DNA from: an uncultured Actinomycetota bacterium
GTDB lineage: Bacteria; Actinomycetota; Humimicrobiia; Humimicrobiales; Humimicrobiaceae
NCBI GenBank assembly: GCA_964610315.1
Contig: CAZSVM010000005.1
Location: 6,960-70,959, forward strand
Length of the DNA stretch: 64,000 bases
Direction: 5' to 3'
The translations under genes and the position numbers were made by a program. Below are positions 12,905 to 27,555 of the stretch, piece after piece. Numbering within the stretch: the first letter of the stretch is position 1; every line of letters starts with the position of its first letter. The notes under the pieces were generated by a model. That model was not told the DNA's origin. It made no database searches and saw only the letters and a list, made by a program, of their open reading frames with translations.

Positions 12905-12979
12905 TCCCCGATAGCTCAATGGTAGAGCATTCGGCTGTTAACCGAAGGGTTGTAGGTTCGAGTCCTACTCGGGGAGCCA
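12905..12979 (+). tRNA. tRNA-Asn (GTT), intact, encoded CCA; anchor of the cassette array
   Basis: TCCCCGA/TCGGGGA acceptor stem, GCTC/GAGC D-stem, TTCGG-ctGTTaa-CCGAA anticodon arm, GTAGG-TTCGAGT-CCTAC T-arm. Confidence 0.97.
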
Positions 12980-13127
12980 GAAAATTTGACCCTTCATAAC
13001 AATAAAAATTGGCTGATCTCCTTGGATTTATTTATAAGCAATTGCTTTGTATTTCGATAGACAAATTAATTATTTTTTGTAATAATTTTTTTAATCTTTT
13101 TTAAAAACTTAACCAATACTTTAAAGT

Positions 13128-14024
13128 ATGTCTACAGTTGAAGTAAATCACATAGTCAAATCATATGCAGATAAGCTCGCGGTTGACGATCTGTCTTTCT
13201 CTATAGCTCAAAATGAGATATTTGGTCTAATAGGACCTAATGGTGCGGGCAAGACTACCACCATCAGGATGATGATGGATATAATTAAACCTGATTCGGG
13301 CGAGGTTATAGTTTTTGGAGAGAAATTGAATGAAGCAAGTAAGAATAGACTTGGCTATCTACCCGAAGAAAGAGGATTGTATAAAAAACTGACTGTGATG
13401 GAATCTATTATCTACCTGGCTTCACTTAAAAATATGGTCAGGTCCTCTATAGGGGAAAAAGCTGATGAGTTGCTTAAACAAACAGGTATGCTTCCTTACA
13501 AGAATAAGCGGATTGAAGAATTGAGCAAAGGCATGGGTCAGATTATTCAGCTCATAGTCACCATTATCCATGACCCTGAACTGGTTATTTTTGATGAACC
13601 ATTTTCAAGTCTTGATCCAATTAATACAGAACTAATTAAAAAGTTATTTGTAGGTTTGAGAAACCAGGGTAAGGCAGTAGTTCTAAGTACCCATCAGATA
13701 AATCAGGTAGAGGAACTCTGTGACCGTGTATTAATGATAGACAATGGACATAAAATTCTTTACGGGAGTCTTTCAGAAATCAAAGCCAGGTATAAAACTA
13801 ACACAGTTATTATTGATTTTGAAGGTGAGCTGGGACATATACCGGGAATTATAAAAAAGAGAGTTAACAAAGACTCTGCTGAATTAATCCTTGATAGAAG
13901 TACTACTCCTGAACAAGTCCTAAAACGGTTATTGGACACTGGCTTAACAATCAATCGATTCGAAGTCTCAATTCCTTCACTTAACGAAGTATTTATTGAG
14001 GTGGTGAGTGAAAATAAGAAATAA
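13128..14024 (+). CDS. ABC exporter ATP-binding subunit (YhaQ/NatA-like)
   Basis: GPNGAGKTT, LSKGM, IFDEP; C-terminal DUF4162-like extension. Confidence 0.9.
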   Translation: MSTVEVNHIVKSYADKLAVDDLSFSIAQNEIFGLIGPNGAGKTTTIRMMMDIIKPDSGEVIVFGEKLNEASKNRLGYLPEERGLYKKLTVMESIIYLASLKNMVRSSIGEKADELLKQTGMLPYKNKRIEELSKGMGQIIQLIVTIIHDPELVIFDEPFSSLDPINTELIKKLFVGLRNQGKAVVLSTHQINQVEELCDRVLMIDNGHKILYGSLSEIKARYKTNTVIIDFEGELGHIPGIIKKRVNKDSAELILDRSTTPEQVLKRLLDTGLTINRFEVSIPSLNEVFIEVVSENKK

Positions 14025-15231
14025 GACATTGTTAGTATTCAGACATGAGTTCTTTCATACAGTAAAAAGAGCAGGGTTCATTATACTCGCTCTCTCACTG
14101 CCCGTGCTAGCTCTTCTGGGTATAGGAGTTTATCATATTGTCTCAGGAGCTATTAAACCTTCCACAGAAGTATCCAGGATAGGATATGTCGATGAATCTG
14201 GTGATTTTGACCAGTACACTACACAGGGAAATATAATTCTTATCAGCTATGAAACCCAGGAATCGGCCACACAGGCTTTGATTAAAAAGGACATTAAAGA
14301 ATATTTCATCATTCCACAGGATTTTGTATCAACAGGGATAATCAAACGTTATGTCACACAGCGAGAGCTTGCACCACCCCTTGATACAGTAAATGCAATT
14401 GATGTTTTCCTTTCAAGTAATCTATTGGCCGGAAAAGTACCAGAAAGCACTATTGCAAGGATTGAATCTTCCCCGAATCTTATTACAACCACGCTGACTT
14501 CAACAGGTGACACAGCTACACAACAGGGTGGATACGCAAACTTTATCGTTCCAGGTGTTTTCAGCCTACTGTTGGCATTATCACTTATGCTTAACTCCAG
14601 TTATGTGGTGCAAAGTCTTAGTGAAGAGAAAGAAAATCGGCTTATGGAAATATTGTTATCCTCAGTTTCCACTCGGCAATTGTTGACAGGTAAGGTTCTG
14701 GGTCGGGGGACTGCTGGATTTATACAGGTAATAGTATGGGCAATTTCAATACCTTTACTGCTACGATTGGCATCCTCATCAATTGGAGGTTTTATAAGCA
14801 GTATAAAAATACCACCTGGTTTCCTGGTTCTTGGAATAGTATATTTTATTCTCGGTTATTTGTTATTCAGTGTCCTTTCTGCGGCTGTGGCTGCTATCAG
14901 TCCCACCATAAGAGAAGCACAGTCATTGGCATCAATATACACACTTTTCGCTTTTGTACCATTGTGGTTTTTGTCTTTGCTGATGTTCTTCCCTAATAAT
15001 CCAATTTGGATTGTTTTTAGTATTTTTCCTTTTAGTGCACCTGTGATGATAATGTTGCGCATGGGTATTACTGACGTACCTGTATGGCAAATTGTTGTTA
15101 GTATGATCGTATTGTTGTCATGCATTATTGGGGGATTGTTTTTAGCAGCCAAACTACTGAGGACTTATATACTGATGTATGGCAAAAGACCAAATCTTAA
15201 AGAGATTATAAAGAATTTTAAAAGTGTATAG
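14008..15231 (+). CDS. ABC-2 type permease (YhaP/NatB-like)
   Basis: SEEKENRLMEILLSSVS...LLTGKVLG motif; multiple TM helices. Confidence 0.9.
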   Translation: MKIRNKTLLVFRHEFFHTVKRAGFIILALSLPVLALLGIGVYHIVSGAIKPSTEVSRIGYVDESGDFDQYTTQGNIILISYETQESATQALIKKDIKEYFIIPQDFVSTGIIKRYVTQRELAPPLDTVNAIDVFLSSNLLAGKVPESTIARIESSPNLITTTLTSTGDTATQQGGYANFIVPGVFSLLLALSLMLNSSYVVQSLSEEKENRLMEILLSSVSTRQLLTGKVLGRGTAGFIQVIVWAISIPLLLRLASSSIGGFISSIKIPPGFLVLGIVYFILGYLLFSVLSAAVAAISPTIREAQSLASIYTLFAFVPLWFLSLLMFFPNNPIWIVFSIFPFSAPVMIMLRMGITDVPVWQIVVSMIVLLSCIIGGLFLAAKLLRTYILMYGKRPNLKEIIKNFKSV

Positions 15232-15319
15232 ATGCAATTATTCTGATATTATTTCGCATTGAATATTTGATTCTAACAGTGAATGTTTATAACTTATACA
15301 TATATCTAATTTATAAGAA

Positions 15320-15347
15320 ATTCTAAAAGCGTCCATACAGAGAGCCA
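15320..15347 (+). repeat. tRNA-3'-like att site 1 (degenerate, 1-nt deletion; DAFR type)
   Basis: ATTCTAAAAGCGTCCATACAGAGAGCCA. Confidence 0.7.
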
Positions 15348-15438
15348 GATAATTAAGGATCTTGATTATATAAAAATATAGGTAGTTTTAATTTTTTCTA
15401 ATTCATCTTTTAAATCAGTAAATTCATTAAAATAAAAA

Positions 15439-15467
15439 GTTCGAAATGTGTCCACTAAGGGGAGCCA
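15439..15467 (+). repeat. tRNA-3'-like att site 2 (DTFRTFY type)
   Basis: GTTCGAAATGTGTCCACTAAGGGGAGCCA; minus strand reads WLPLVDTFRTFYFNEFTDLKDELEKIKTTYIFI*. Confidence 0.85.
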
Positions 15468-25993: not shown

Positions 25994-26212
25994 TTATTGT
26001 ATAATATCTTCTATTTTTACAAATTTGGTTTTAGATTTCTTTTTCCTAGTTTCAAACTCTTCAATTACTTTCTTGTCTTTAATTTCATCGTAAAGGTCCC
26101 ACAAAGATCTTTTAAGTAAACTTGAAGAATCACAATTGTAGTATTTTCTTAAAATTTTCAATATCTTTTCTTCTTTAGTATTAAATCTTACAGTATTACT
26201 GCCACTTTTCAT
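25994..26212 (-). CDS. Small ribbon-helix-helix antitoxin-like protein (DUF6290/RelB-like), no toxin partner
   Basis: 72 aa; TVRF.. beta strand, SSLLKRSL..LYDEIKD..VIEEFE. Confidence 0.55.
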   Translation of the reverse strand: MKSGSNTVRFNTKEEKILKILRKYYNCDSSSLLKRSLWDLYDEIKDKKVIEEFETRKKKSKTKFVKIEDIIQ

Positions 26213-26362
26213 ACACCTCTTCTCTTTTACCGATGTAAATTATATAAAAATCATCATTTAATATATAAAAAAGTGCTCTGCATTTACCTTTTCTTAATCT
26301 ATAGTAGTCTCTATGGTAATTGAATTAAGTTATCAAAACTTAAGCAATTTTCAGAATAAAAA

Positions 26363-26391
26363 GTTCGAAATGTGTCAACTAAGGGGAGCCA
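26363..26391 (+). repeat. tRNA-3'-like att site 8 (DTFRTFY type)
   Basis: GTTCGAAATGTGTCAACTAAGGGGAGCCA; minus strand WLPLVDTFRTFYSENCLSFDNLIQLP*. Confidence 0.85.
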
Positions 26392-26554
26392 GCACAAATA
26401 TACAGAAGCATAATATAAATAACTCTTCGGCTTAATTTATATATTTATTAATAAATTATTTATGGGTTTAACCCTTCCCGACTATCTGTTTCTAATTTGT
26501 TTCTGATATTATTAATTTCTTAAAAAAAGTTTGAATATATCAGCAAATGTTAAA

Positions 26555-27334
26555 TTATTTTGTACAGAAATATATATCTTCACTTTCAGGAAGTCCCATA
26601 TATTTAACTGTTTTATCTCCTAATTTTTTTACAAAACCATCTACTTTTACTGAAAATCCAGCAGCAATCAGAAAATCTCTATAATCTTTTCCATAACCTC
26701 TCACATGCTCTGCAAAACCATATATTTTTTCCCTGGCTTTAGGGGTTGTAGCGACTGGATCTTCAAAGGTTAATTCACCAAGTATCGGAACCTGTAGTAT
26801 TGCCCATCCTCCAGGTTTTAAAATCCTATAAATTTCACGCATCGCATTTTTATGATCTGGAATATGCTCAAAAACATGGTTACAGATTATTACATCAAAA
26901 ATATTATCACTCATTTTTATATCTGTTATGTCAATGTAAATCATAGCACGAGTTGGATCAAGATCAGCGCTTAAATATTCTATAAATTCATTTTTTCTAA
27001 TTCTATCGGATAATACAACTTCAGGAGCAACATGTAGGATTTTCTTTTTAGGGCTTTTAAAGAAATTGGTATATTCTTCGAGGTAGAACCATAAAAGCCT
27101 TTCTCTTTCAATAGAGCCACAAACAGGACAAAGTGCATATGGTCTTGGACCAATTTTGATATGTGGTGGGAAATAATATGTGTAAAATTTTCTAATTTTG
27201 CTATCACAGACAGGACAGAATCTTTCATTTCCATAAAAAATTTCTTTCTTTAATTTTTCTCTATATCTGCCTGGGGTTATTTTAATAGCGCCTTCAATTA
27301 AAAATCTTTTTAAATTTTTTATTTTATTAATCAT
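26555..27334 (-). CDS. Class I SAM-dependent methyltransferase with N-terminal CxxC..CxxC
   Basis: CPVC x2, ILHVAPE, FDVIICNHVFEHI, RILKPGG. Confidence 0.88.
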   Translation of the reverse strand: MINKIKNLKRFLIEGAIKITPGRYREKLKKEIFYGNERFCPVCDSKIRKFYTYYFPPHIKIGPRPYALCPVCGSIERERLLWFYLEEYTNFFKSPKKKILHVAPEVVLSDRIRKNEFIEYLSADLDPTRAMIYIDITDIKMSDNIFDVIICNHVFEHIPDHKNAMREIYRILKPGGWAILQVPILGELTFEDPVATTPKAREKIYGFAEHVRGYGKDYRDFLIAAGFSVKVDGFVKKLGDKTVKYMGLPESEDIYFCTK

Positions 27335-27526
27335 TCTAATTATTTTCTCATTATATCTTTTTTTTAACTTCTATGTATATAACTAAACTTCTAATAATTT
27401 TTAAAGGACTTAAGGAAAGTGGTTAAAATATATAAAAATACCCTTATCTAAACCAATAACTCTTATTTGAATATTGTCTATTTAATTCAGTAATTTTCTA
27501 AATTTCTCTAATTCCCTTAATAATTG

Positions 27527-27555
27527 GTTAGAAGTTAGTCTTATAGGGGGAGCCA
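27527..27555 (+). repeat. tRNA-3'-like att site 9 (most distal, decayed)
   Basis: GTTAGAAGTTAGTCTTATAGGGGGAGCCA; minus strand WLPL*D*LLT. Confidence 0.7.

Follow-up and report, generated by a model that had tools for sequence, protein, structure and literature searches.

The tRNA-Asn locus and the units behind it

The window analyzed here is a 64,000-nucleotide stretch of DNA from an uncultured sediment actinobacterium, whose genome is 97%-complete. In it a tRNA-Asn gene, downstream of rpoD1, is followed by an array of small units delimited by repeated sites of several types. The features are as follows.

11728..12828, + strand: rpoD1, conserved core gene upstream of the anchor (Pfam sigma-70 regions 1.1-4)
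12905..12979, + strand: tRNA-Asn(GTT), the anchor (ARAGORN, Rfam)
12980..15347, + strand: unit 1, ABC transporter ATPase (13128-14024) and ABC-2 permease (14008-15231) by Pfam; decayed type A site at 15320-15347, one base short
15348..15467, + strand: unit 2, 120 bp, geneless by sequence; type B arm and site (15439-15467)
15481..15594, + strand: native post-tRNA-Asn flank, first copy (B' motif, GGCTCTTCACCAACAAACGGGGCAACCCGCTCTAAC..., shared with relatives)
15696..16654, + strand: unit 3 cargo, 109-aa protein (weak HTH match) and DUF2204 nucleotidyltransferase (16022-16570); type E site at 16626-16654
17065..18888, + strand: unit 4, RRM RNA-binding protein (17065-17412), rpoD copy (17522-18649) and mildly decayed tRNA-Asn copy (18815-18888)
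18903..18938, + strand: native flank motif, second copy, immediately 3' of tRNA copy 2
19096..21451, + strand: unit 5, radical-SAM genes (19096-20397 and 20411-21289); type A site at 21423-21451
21452..24419: unit 6, flavodoxin-like fragment, DUF4153 gene (21797-23260, +) and NAD-epimerase (23267-24259, -); type B site at 24391-24419
24420..24560, + strand: unit 7, 141 bp, geneless; decayed type A arm and site (24532-24560, ...ATAGGGAGCTA)
24561..25865, + strand: unit 8, WbsX/GH99-like glycosyl enzyme (24684-25814); type A site at 25837-25865
25866..26391: unit 9, DUF6290 antitoxin-like gene (25994-26212, -); type B site at 26363-26391
26392..27555: unit 10, methyltransferase (26555-27334, -); decayed type C-like site at 27527-27555, the last recognisable site of the array
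27556..32692: non-syntenic DNA without sites, containing a split purA, a DinB-like gene, an aldo-keto reductase and a 434-aa ORF

An earlier note on this DNA had reported nine sites, the tRNA-Asn and a decayed tRNA copy, and we find all of them in place: ARAGORN calls tRNA-Asn at 12905-12979 and 18815-18888 (74.3 and 54.7 bits in Rfam, respectively), and by sequence reading the sites end at 15347, 15467, 16654, 21451, 24419, 24560, 25865, 26391 and 27555. The order dnaG-rpoD-tRNA-Asn is conserved in the fetched loci of 20 relatives, and the tRNA-Asn is present in 63 of 80 family genomes. As had been claimed, the 20 cargo ORFs scanned represent accessory genes unrelated to one another; they lie on both strands. 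From about 32693 onward the window is again syntenic with a congener: positions 32693-33555 match G008:C4:70848-71713, on the same contig as the tRNA-Asn of G008.

The native flank motif lies immediately 3' of tRNA-Asn in G041 (L185) and G091 (L140). Its first copy in the window follows site 15467, so that this site looks like an attR-type junction joining an element arm to native flank. Unmentioned in the earlier note is a second, intact rpoD (17522-18649; 85% amino-acid identity to rpoD1) upstream of the decayed tRNA. The two are separated by the same tRNA promoter region as at the rpoD1 locus, and this rpoD-tRNA-Asn segment of unit 4 is imported.

Site families, half-site geometry and putative coding tails

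The motif GGGGAGCCA occurs eight times in the window against an expectation of 0.29 (0 of 100 shuffles reached eight), always on the + strand and within 12971-27555. That no site copy lies elsewhere in the window, as had been supposed, was confirmed with an nhmmer site profile, which matches contig C5 only at window positions 15312-27556. The sites fall into heterogeneous families rather than following one uniform consensus, a feature that had gone unnoticed.

Ends 21451 and 25865, decayed copies 15347 and 24560, + strand: type A sites (GTTCTAAAAGCGTCC-N5-GGGGAGCCA)
Ends 15467, 24419 and 26391, + strand: type B sites (GTTCGAAATGTGTCM-ACTAA-GGGGAGCCA)
End 16654, + strand: type E site (TTGTTATYAAYAYMGTCCAG...GAGCCA)
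End 27555, + strand: type C-like site, decayed

The site at 16654, previously taken for a looser copy, is a separate type, found again in two relatives (L130 and L128). Three of the nine sites are decayed. Decay does not rise with distance from the tRNA, a point also missing from the earlier note; the most proximal site, 15347, is as decayed as the most distal one, and the argument that distal decay indicates addition at the tRNA therefore fails.

The sites had been regarded as simply tRNA-derived, and their geometry speaks against this. The distance from GTCC-N5-GGGG to GTTCKAAAT in the array sites exceeds that to GTTCGA in the tRNA by 5 bp; with AG as the center, the motif spans positions 24-16 of the half-site in the array and 19-11 in the tRNA. 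Passages of one study place the zinc-ribbon-domain motif of LI integrase at these same positions in attP and attB (PMC3783163). Judged by sequence, the offset matches the way in which attP and attB half-sites of large serine recombinases (LSRs) differ, and the tRNA-Asn 3' end, GGTTCGAGTCCTACTCGGGG-AG-CCA, is read as an attB-type left half-site. Left of the core, four bases differ across the family (GGGG, GGGC, GCCC, GGCC, CCCC) while AGCCA is constant; for the tRNA to survive, the crossover must therefore fall on AG or to its right. Among the window units, the right half-sites have nothing clear in common except a purine at +1 followed by a pyrimidine at +2.

The sites also appear to encode the C-terminal tail of LSRs. 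On the minus strand all five site types read WLP-x-(L/V)-D-x-(F/I) or WLP..KFRT, as in unit 2 (WLPLVDTFRTFYFNEFTDLKDELEKIKTTYIFI*) and at the type E site (WLPGLDDINN...). Substitutions in type B arms are spread evenly over codon positions (0.416, 0.389 and 0.439), and with no third-position excess the tail-coding reading gains no backing from a selection signal.

Relatives provide the corresponding genes. Intact LSRs lie immediately 3' of tRNA-Asn in G024, G044 and G022, as does an LSR fragment in G008; the G024 ORF ends ...NKCSNWLPE*, its last codons within the tRNA. A C-terminal LSR fragment in G009 continues across a type B site (...CSDWLPLADIFRTFYFNEF...). Among 30 family loci fetched with a tRNA-Asn-type LSR as query, 12 have an ORF with the W-L reading across a tRNA-like or P-type ...AGCCA site (P denoting the attP-type, element-side form), and direct reading shows the same at a further locus (L148, the G024 gene). 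Of the 31 LSR matches listed for 80 family genomes, about 18 are C-terminal fragments (approximately residues 383-490), and several of these contain internal stops. At least some units must then stem from recombinase-bearing elements. The claim that the units lack a recombinase holds for the window: in this same-orientation array of small units, Pfam and tblastn with five LSRs found none in any of them.

Exchange of units between genomes

Genome comparison bore out a further expectation: from one genome to another, units have been added, removed and rearranged with breakpoints exactly at ...GGGGAGCCA. For each of cargos X, R, P, Q and a two-component pair, the left neighbor is the tRNA in one genome and a site of type A, B or C elsewhere, and the junction falls exactly at CCA. 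Two genera have unit R (776 bp) with the limits CCA|...CCA|. Cassettes, among which toxin-antitoxin pairs are numerous, recur in other genera, there too with junctions precisely at ...AGCCA. As for units of the window, G045 has a one-gene cassette with 82% DNA identity to the first radical-SAM gene of unit 5, and the sole unit between tRNA and native flank in G014 contains a DUF4153 homologue (58% aa).

Addition at the tRNA end is supported by two congeners with a core identity of 94.9%. In G015 the tRNA is directly followed by cassette Q; G093 has a site before Q and two extra units between Q and the tRNA, which indicates that new units appear beside the tRNA. The arrays of G014 and G045 terminate at the native post-tRNA flank, and this flank reappears 3' of P sites, as expected of attR junctions.

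The idea that the motif is tied to tRNA-Asn stands for the window, where the array is the sole region with sites. It does not stand more widely, as this genome carries another array on contigs C7/C2 as well as sites at C9, C15 and C17, and relatives have arrays at tRNA-Gln and at loci without a tRNA; the motif is thus in part scattered independently of tRNA-Asn. GTTCKAAA-N12-GGGGAGCCA (at most one mismatch) was matched in 54 of 80 family genomes, against one match in total for a reversed-pattern control. Metagenomes yielded 47 exact type A 29-mers on 39 contigs, uniformly oriented within each contig, none of them circular. Viral contigs gave 0 matches.

A probable LSR-dependent hotspot and its alternatives

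We favor as the probable explanation, from sequence comparison, a tRNA-Asn-anchored hotspot stacked with small, mostly recombinase-less units by LSR-dependent site-specific recombination; the earlier interpretation is thereby partly supported. The repeated site would consist of a P left half-site and a shared core, AG-CCA, and the tRNA 3' end would be the matching chromosome-side half-site. Crossover would occur at or just after AG of GGGG-AG-CCA, in which case every insertion rebuilds the tRNA end, moves the units already present farther out and deposits a P half-site of its own at the distal end. Most units may be recombinase-less derivatives or hitch-hikers moved between genera as discrete modules, carrying toxin-antitoxin pairs, transporters, radical-SAM enzymes and similar genes. 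The relevant LSR genes of the family are convergent to the tRNA with frames crossing the att site, such that P arms would encode alternative C-terminal tails. A recombinase acting in trans is the most economical reading, and the process may still be active today. The array resembles staphylococcal SCC composite islands more closely than integrons.

One difficulty lies in the textbook rules for LSRs, under which attL and attR do not react and attB is lost once occupied (PMC3783163), so that serial stacking would need relaxed specificity or a regenerated pseudo-attB. G015, with five sites yet no Resolvase-domain match, also speaks against this reading, as do the LSR search of the present genome described below, the right half-sites without a clear motif and the results for circular and viral contigs. 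The same chemistry disfavors re-use of attL or attR and lends weight to an unlikely alternative, namely that LSR-bearing elements integrated serially and decayed in place, leaving the sites as dead scars, with genome differences arising by homologous recombination between 30-110-bp site modules or flanks. The decayed window sites, the broken LSR fragments and the arms without codon-position signal fit this, as does the failure to find a tRNA-Asn-type (WLP) LSR in this genome, where tblastn (E<1) detected no LSR or LSR fragment in either the array of the window or that on C7/C2. However, decay in place cannot yield units of 0.6-1.8 kb that are 89-96% identical across genera, against 72-77% for the dnaG-rpoD core, and that occupy different array positions. 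Left junctions fall exactly at CCA regardless of the site type to the left, and one identical type A 29-mer is joined to at least three unrelated upstream arm families and many cargos, a point biased by a search that took exact matches only.

That the array is a dedicated gene-capture platform with its own cognate recombinase, an analogue of attI, attC and IntI rather than an accretion of element remnants, seems to us quite improbable. Same-orientation sites every 0.1-3 kb with 0-3 genes per unit are suggestive of it, as are toxin-antitoxin cassettes, which sedentary integrons share, and the presence of several arrays per genome in a widely positive family. Arrays lacked a recombinase in all six relatives checked, and tblastn found no intact LSR on the 39 metagenome contigs. 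Against this, an LSR, where present, sits within the first unit, and array heads have no conserved gene other than the tRNA. Nor is the array an integron: there is no IntI, as two small tyrosine recombinases score 113/82 and 52/51 bits against integron-integrase cut-offs of 265/435 and only one of eight such genes has an adjacent site; the nine sites form no attC-like hairpins (folding z-scores -1.90 to +1.47); and cargo on both strands leaves no common promoter logic.

The 3' ends of tRNA genes are classical targets of tyrosine integrases, and the sites might be att cores plus arm-type sites of tycheposon-like or CIME-like islands. We regard this as very doubtful. Exact 25-30-nt partial copies of the tRNA-Asn 3' end do exist (C7:3482-3506 here and about 17 places in the family), and a tycheposon report describes, in the part consulted, stacked elements with partial tRNAs between them (bioRxiv 10.1101/2020.12.28.424599). 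But the arrays of this genome (G000) and of five relatives have no tyrosine recombinase inside or next to them, the 5-bp shift and LSR reading frames would be left unexplained, and the C7 partial copy is followed by an LSR-type right arm, ATCAGAAC. Finally, it is scarcely credible that the repeats are tRNA-like RNA elements, terminators or regulatory repeats that by chance flank accessory genes: they do resemble a tRNA T-arm and acceptor end and are intergenic and on one strand only, but Rfam finds nothing at the sites, they have no stable fold, homology between genomes stops exactly at them and LSR ORFs run across them.

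Geometry of the probable attachment sites in the tRNA-Asn array

The window, C5:6960-70959, comes from a genome of 1.89 Mb in 28 contigs (97% complete, G+C about 36%), and its rpoD gene shares 95% identity with the rpoD of a MAG that bears the label Candidatus Hydromicrobium sp. The stretch is present in three sequencing runs, all from one study; other runs share only a 0.06-0.07 fraction of its words, which says nothing on habitat. An earlier note had described nine att-like sites behind the tRNA-Asn gene, and its observation is confirmed: each site was found in place on reading the sequence, the site profile matched the contig (C5) nowhere else, and no unit was found to encode a recombinase (none among 20 ORFs scanned in and around the array, and nothing at E<1 in tblastn with five large serine recombinases, LSRs). 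The core GGGGAGCCA occurs eight times in the window, on the plus strand only and between 12971 and 27555, where 0.29 occurrences are expected and 0 of 100 shuffles reached eight. The features are as follows.

12905-12979, plus strand: tRNA-Asn(GTT), found by ARAGORN and Rfam
18815-18888, plus strand: weaker tRNA-Asn copy, found by ARAGORN and Rfam
Sites ending at 21451 and 25865, plus strand: type A, with decayed copies ending at 15347 and 24560
Sites ending at 15467, 24419 and 26391, plus strand: type B
Site ending at 16654, plus strand: type E
Site ending at 27555, plus strand: type C-like, decayed

These site families recur in other genomes, and types A and B carry a conserved upstream arm of 70-110 nt. 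The proposal that the sites derive from the tRNA needs changing, as they are not plain copies of its 3' end. The tRNA reads GGTTCGA-GTCC-TACTC-GGGGAGCCA and the sites GTTCKA-5 nt-GTCM-N5-GGGGAGCCA; the inner register is the same in both, and the outer motif of the sites lies exactly 5 bp further out. There is precedent for such an offset among LSRs. In the account of Rutherford et al. 2013 (PMC3783163), the recombinase domain is bound alike in attP and attB, while the zinc-ribbon-domain motif occupies half-site positions 16-24 in attP and 11-19 in attB. Counting by hand from the AG of GGGG-AG-CCA as centre, GTTCKAAAT takes up positions 24-16 in the array sites and GTTCGAGTC positions 19-11 in the tRNA, and so the tRNA and the sites differ as the two kinds of LSR site do, with a common inner register and an outer motif shifted by 5 bp. 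We read the sites as probable element-side arms of LSR attachment sites, that is, as attP-type left half-sites ending in AGCCA (P-type sites).

Across the family AGCCA is constant and the four bases to the left of the core vary (GGGG, GGGC, GCCC, GGCC, CCCC); in an array behind a tRNA-Gln gene, which ends ...CCCCAGCCA, the sites have GGGGCAGCCA, GGCCAGCCA and GCCCAGCCA. If the tRNA is to stay intact, this pattern would put the crossover at or after AG. A palindrome analysis by hand scored two centres alike (12/18 matches for centre -10 and 12/24 for AG), and the placement is therefore based on the 5-bp offset together with the invariant AGCCA. Among the right halves of the units in the window, only a purine-pyrimidine at +1 and +2 is common.

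Two further observations concern genes in and next to the array. A second intact rpoD (375 aa, 85% amino acid identity to the first) lies inside it, accompanied by an upstream RRM protein gene, a near-identical tRNA promoter region of about 60 bp, the mildly decayed tRNA-Asn and a native post-tRNA flank; the whole segment (window 17065-18938) looks like an rpoD-tRNA-Asn locus imported from a related lineage. The purA gene is split at window 27900-29173, with residues 1-89 at 27900-28172 and residues ~128-416 at 28289-29173, and is either a pseudogene or an assembly error.

Further arrays and the movement of cassettes among relatives

The suggestion that the motif is proper to the tRNA-Asn locus stands for contig C5 but not for the genome. 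The end of contig C2 overlaps the start of C7 by about 55 nt, and the two joined give a second array, headed by a cca gene and an exact 25-nt copy of the tRNA-Asn 3' end, then an LSR-type arm (ATCAGAAC) and five further sites. More sites lie at the ends of contigs C9, C15 and C17, and a sibling site family with the core CCCCAGCCA accompanies an intact LSR beside nadC. The pattern GTTCKAAA-N12-GGGGAGCCA, with at most one mismatch, was found in 54 of 80 family genomes (a reversed-pattern control gave one match in total); nine sites, in three clusters, were also counted in one genome from a different family of the phylum. In G041, a relative assembled in seven contigs, five arrays were present among six loci fetched; one is behind tRNA-Gln, the other four had no tRNA at the head within the stretch fetched, and no LSR was seen in any of the six loci. 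In metagenomes the exact type A 29-mer occurred 47 times on 39 contigs, preceded by at least three unrelated upstream arms and with all sites found on a given contig in the same orientation; no intact LSR was found on these 39 contigs.

The order dnaG-rpoD-tRNA-Asn was kept in the 20 relatives' loci fetched and all DNA downstream was variable. The earlier note had attributed cassette-like behavior to the units, and comparison with relatives bears this out, as the same cargos were found behind different left neighbors with the junction exactly at CCA. The recurrent cargos, named by their Pfam matches, are listed here (genomes other than G000, which holds the window, are family relatives).

Cargo X (Phd/RelE-like pair): left neighbor the tRNA (G054), a type B site (G055) or a type C site (G015)
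Cargo R (CopG/BrnA-like pair): left neighbor the tRNA (G055, G003), a type A site (G045) or a C-like site (G054)
Cargo P (AbiEi/AbiEii): left neighbor the tRNA (G093) or a type A site (G067)
Cargo Q (MntA/HepT-like): left neighbor the tRNA (G015, G067) or a type C site (G093)
Two-component pair of the second array: left neighbor a type C site (G000) or a type B site (G016)

Unit R, of 776 bp, is bounded CCA|...CCA| in two genera. Given that cargos are 89-96% identical where the adjacent core is 72-77% identical, the units must have travelled between genera. G015 and G093, whose cores are 94.9% identical, are set apart by two units between the tRNA and cargo Q; this fits insertion next to the tRNA, as had been proposed. 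A conserved motif of about 115 nt (GGCTCTTCACCAACAAACGGGGCAACCCGCTCTAAC...) is native behind tRNA-Asn in several genera. It is the native follower of tRNA-Asn in G041 (locus L185:4860-4958), with a shorter version in G091 (L140:3076-), and in the window it lies at 15481-15594 and from 18903, the latter after the second tRNA copy. It also reappears directly after P-type sites (15467 in the window, and sites in G014, G045 and G015), which is the pattern expected for attR junctions. The motif has five predicted pairs, with no covariation and no consensus fold.

Recombinase genes and competing readings

Intact LSR genes lie directly 3' of tRNA-Asn and convergent with it in three relatives (G024, G044 and G022), with a fragment there in G008 and another beside an att site in G009; the window's own array has none. 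The LSRs carry Resolvase, Recombinase and zinc-ribbon domains. With regard to how these genes relate to the sites, we found that: (i) the G024 ORF, of 492 aa at L136:3061-4539, ends ...NKCSNWLPE and stop, its final codons being the complement of the tRNA end; (ii) a C-terminal fragment of a G024-type LSR in G009 continues through a type B site (...CSDWLPLADIFRTFYFNEF...); (iii) in 12 of 30 family loci fetched with the G024-type LSR query an ORF reads W-L through ...AGCCA, whether this is the end of a tRNA or a P-type site, and direct reading added one more such case in L148, the locus that holds the G024 gene; and (iv) every site type of the window reads WLP-x-(L/V/I)-D-x-(F/I)... on the minus strand, type B running on for 26-50 codons. 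The sites would carry a putative C-terminal tail of the recombinase's circular form. Substitutions sorted by codon position in 13 type B arms showed no third-position excess in the 'tail' frame.

A tentative proposal, and one we would not press, is that the family has a serine-recombinase counterpart of the integron. Under such a scenario an uncultured sediment Actinomycetota family would maintain several arrays of cassettes (0.1-3 kb) in its chromosomes, and a 24-nt attP-type half-site followed by AGCCA would terminate each cassette; the 3' ends of tRNA-Asn and tRNA-Gln would capture single cassettes, LSRs encoded in trans would shuffle them, and, as LSR frames cross the att site, integration or excision would swap the C-terminal tail of the enzyme. 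Stacked recombinase-less cassettes are already known from integrons (with a tyrosine recombinase and folded attC) and, at much larger unit size, from SCC islands; the arrays described here combine this architecture with LSR site grammar and a tRNA anchor, at several loci per genome and with sites in most family genomes. If an LSR encoded in trans moves the cassettes one at a time, enzymes of this class could drive a gene-capture system, which would conflict with the strict attP x attB rule and interest engineers of LSRs, and streamlined uncultured actinobacteria (1-2 Mb) would gain a mechanism for exchanging toxin-antitoxin and accessory genes. A recombinase ORF that passes through its own att site is in itself a small, testable regulatory idea.

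A serious rival, if in our view an improbable one, is that the array is a fossil hotspot reshuffled by homologous recombination. It remains a rival because of the weak points of the LSR-cassette reading. No cognate LSR was found in the G000 genome, and G015 has sites and no Resolvase-domain match. Of the 31 listed LSR matches from 80 family genomes, about 18 are pieces of the C-terminal part, some 100 aa long, which shows that decay of LSR-bearing elements is common. Excised circles were not seen (no terminal overlap among the 39 metagenome contigs), type A and type B sites were absent from the viral contigs searched, and the right halves agree in so little. Furthermore, canonical LSR rules, as set out in PMC3783163, bar re-use of an occupied site.

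The C-terminal LSR pieces start near residue 383-400 every time, in many genomes (e.g. contigs G089:C62, G075:C87, G009:C36 and G060:C120), and some keep open frames of 110-167 aa. Such a recurrent break point suggests that the pieces are a miniature derivative which has spread, or else a small gene in its own right, and not the outcome of random deletion. Outside the family, LSRs 40-42% identical to the tRNA-Asn type were found in two unannotated faecal 'Bacteriophage sp.' records:

L178 (MT837677.1) 826-2403, strand opposite to the tRNA: LSR homologue whose ORF runs through tRNA-Leu(CAG)
L179 (MT836653.1) 7529-9156, strand opposite to the tRNA: LSR homologue whose ORF abuts tRNA-Glu(TTC)

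In light of these gut-derived homologues, targeting of tRNA ends seems to be a trait of the LSR clade. Behind the LSR element at tRNA-Asn in G044 there is a transposase-like ORF with a zinc-binding CxxC region (L146 5497-6846), by eye a putative IS91-like gene, a fragment of which directly follows tRNA-Asn in G086 (L141 3083-3306).

Known systems and other mobile elements of the genome

The earlier note had likened the array to an integron platform. What stands of this is the likeness to sedentary chromosomal integrons in architecture: arrays of small cassettes between recombination sites, many of them toxin-antitoxin cassettes, with the recombinase outside the cassettes and insertion at one end. 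Unlike integrons, the arrays have no IntI, folded attC, attI or common promoter, and the chemistry would be serine and not tyrosine. The check for a classical integron (integrase models, fold test, cargo orientation) was negative throughout, and we reject that identity. None of the genome's five tyrosine recombinases is near the arrays, and two small ones scored 113/82 and 52/51 bits on integron-integrase models with cut-offs of 265/435. Nine 100-nt site modules, folded as DNA on the plus strand, gave z-scores of -1.90 to +1.47 and no hairpin, and cargo lies on both strands (minus-strand genes include 23267-24259, 25994-26212 and 26555-27334), not in a common orientation behind an attI promoter. 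A structured RNA or attC-like fold is likewise rejected, as Rfam returned two tRNAs and chance matches and the nine sites gave no fold signal.

The closest known relatives are SCC composite islands with pseudo-SCC, as described in PMC6243372, and tRNA islands built by tycheposons. SCC islands consist of tandem elements with short direct repeats, pseudo-SCC without ccr, and assorted accessory genes (PMC6243372; bioRxiv 10.1101/336396). In these descriptions, and probably here, an LSR family is involved, and in both cases elements go in where a conserved gene has its 3' end; the likeness in tandem elements at one att site, direct repeats and absence of a recombinase from some elements is one of structure only. 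The SCC anchor is rlmH whereas here it is a tRNA, SCC elements measure several to tens of kb and the units here 0.1-3 kb, and, unlike SCC, there are several arrays per genome and the LSR frame crosses the att site. Nor are the LSRs Ccr orthologues: they scored 87-195 bits against Ccr-family cut-offs of 700-900 (best, CcrB at 194.6 against 900). Ccr enzymes can recombine pairs of sites besides attB x attP.

Tycheposon islands of Prochlorococcus, as reported in bioRxiv 10.1101/2020.12.28.424599, also lie beside tRNA genes, with newer elements pushing older ones outward and with partial tRNA repeats and degenerate remnants scattered through the island; of the 937 elements counted there, 910 carry a tyrosine recombinase and the remaining minority an LSR. 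The arrays of G000 and of five relatives have no tyrosine recombinase within or next to them, and the scan of 20 cargo ORFs gave no primase or helicase. The units are far smaller than those elements, their repeats are not partial tRNA copies but attP-type half-sites that show the 5-bp offset, and the host is a sediment actinobacterium. A Prochlorococcus-type tycheposon island, our first guess from the low G+C, was rejected given the Candidatus Hydromicrobium affinity and the want of an array-associated tyrosine recombinase. A tyrosine recombinase of about 200 aa was considered for the role of cassette enzyme and also rejected: of eight such small recombinases examined near LSRs, only one adjoins a site.

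What seems distinctive, judged from sequence, is the use of LSR attP-type half-sites as boundaries of very small units, in several arrays per genome. Serine integrases such as those of A118/LI, Bxb1 and phiC31 have the same 5-bp displacement of the motif in attP-type relative to attB-type sites, according to PMC3783163. They differ in that the target here is a tRNA 3' end and the stretch common to attP and attB is 5-9 bp and not a dinucleotide only, and their canonical attP x attB-only rule does not predict stacked sites. Recombinase ORFs that apparently cross their own att site are also distinctive. The nearest known case is that of SSV-type archaeal integrases, in which, as PMC8371274 describes, the ORF spans an att site overlapping a tRNA and integration alters the gene; those are tyrosine recombinases whose gene is split in two, whereas here a bacterial serine recombinase would exchange only its last 4-33 codons. 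In our search of the literature, which was not exhaustive, no description of LSR-based cassette arrays at tRNA genes was found. Small, recombinase-less, site-bounded modules moved by a recombinase encoded elsewhere are also known as CIMEs and pdif modules, and the units here resemble them in this respect. These depend on tyrosine recombinases (ICE integrases and XerCD, respectively), and pdif modules lie on plasmids between inverted sites.

Other mobile sequences were seen in the genome. Contig C14 has an array of a second kind, which consists of LSR-side arms. A 546-aa LSR ends there in a stretch (its last 19-24 codons, a terminator hairpin and ...TTTGGCTC) of which three further copies lie downstream, giving four occurrences in all:

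C14 46542-46664: LSR-end repeat
C14 50483-50554: LSR-end repeat
C14 58009-58065: LSR-end repeat
C14 61655-61711: LSR-end repeat

Contig C12 (68256-75600) holds an intact LSR (C12:68304-69791, minus strand) that abuts nadC. Its frame gives ...DWLGRKDSN where it crosses 26 nt that resemble a tRNA-Gln 3' end but belong to no tRNA, and an inverted attP-like fragment lies at the 5' end of the gene (69831-69917). Further along, a 167-aa LSR C-terminal ORF crosses another site at ~72790, and a 204-aa tyrosine recombinase (C12:74957-75571) abuts a site at 74921-74946. Finally, two sequences of about 55 nt are common to contig ends (C4, C12, C13, C15 and C17 left; C10 right; C9, C11, C12 and C14 right; C1 left). 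They mark either terminus of a multi-copy insertion sequence at which the assembly broke, and some of its copies adjoin array sites, as where C9 ends and where C15 starts.
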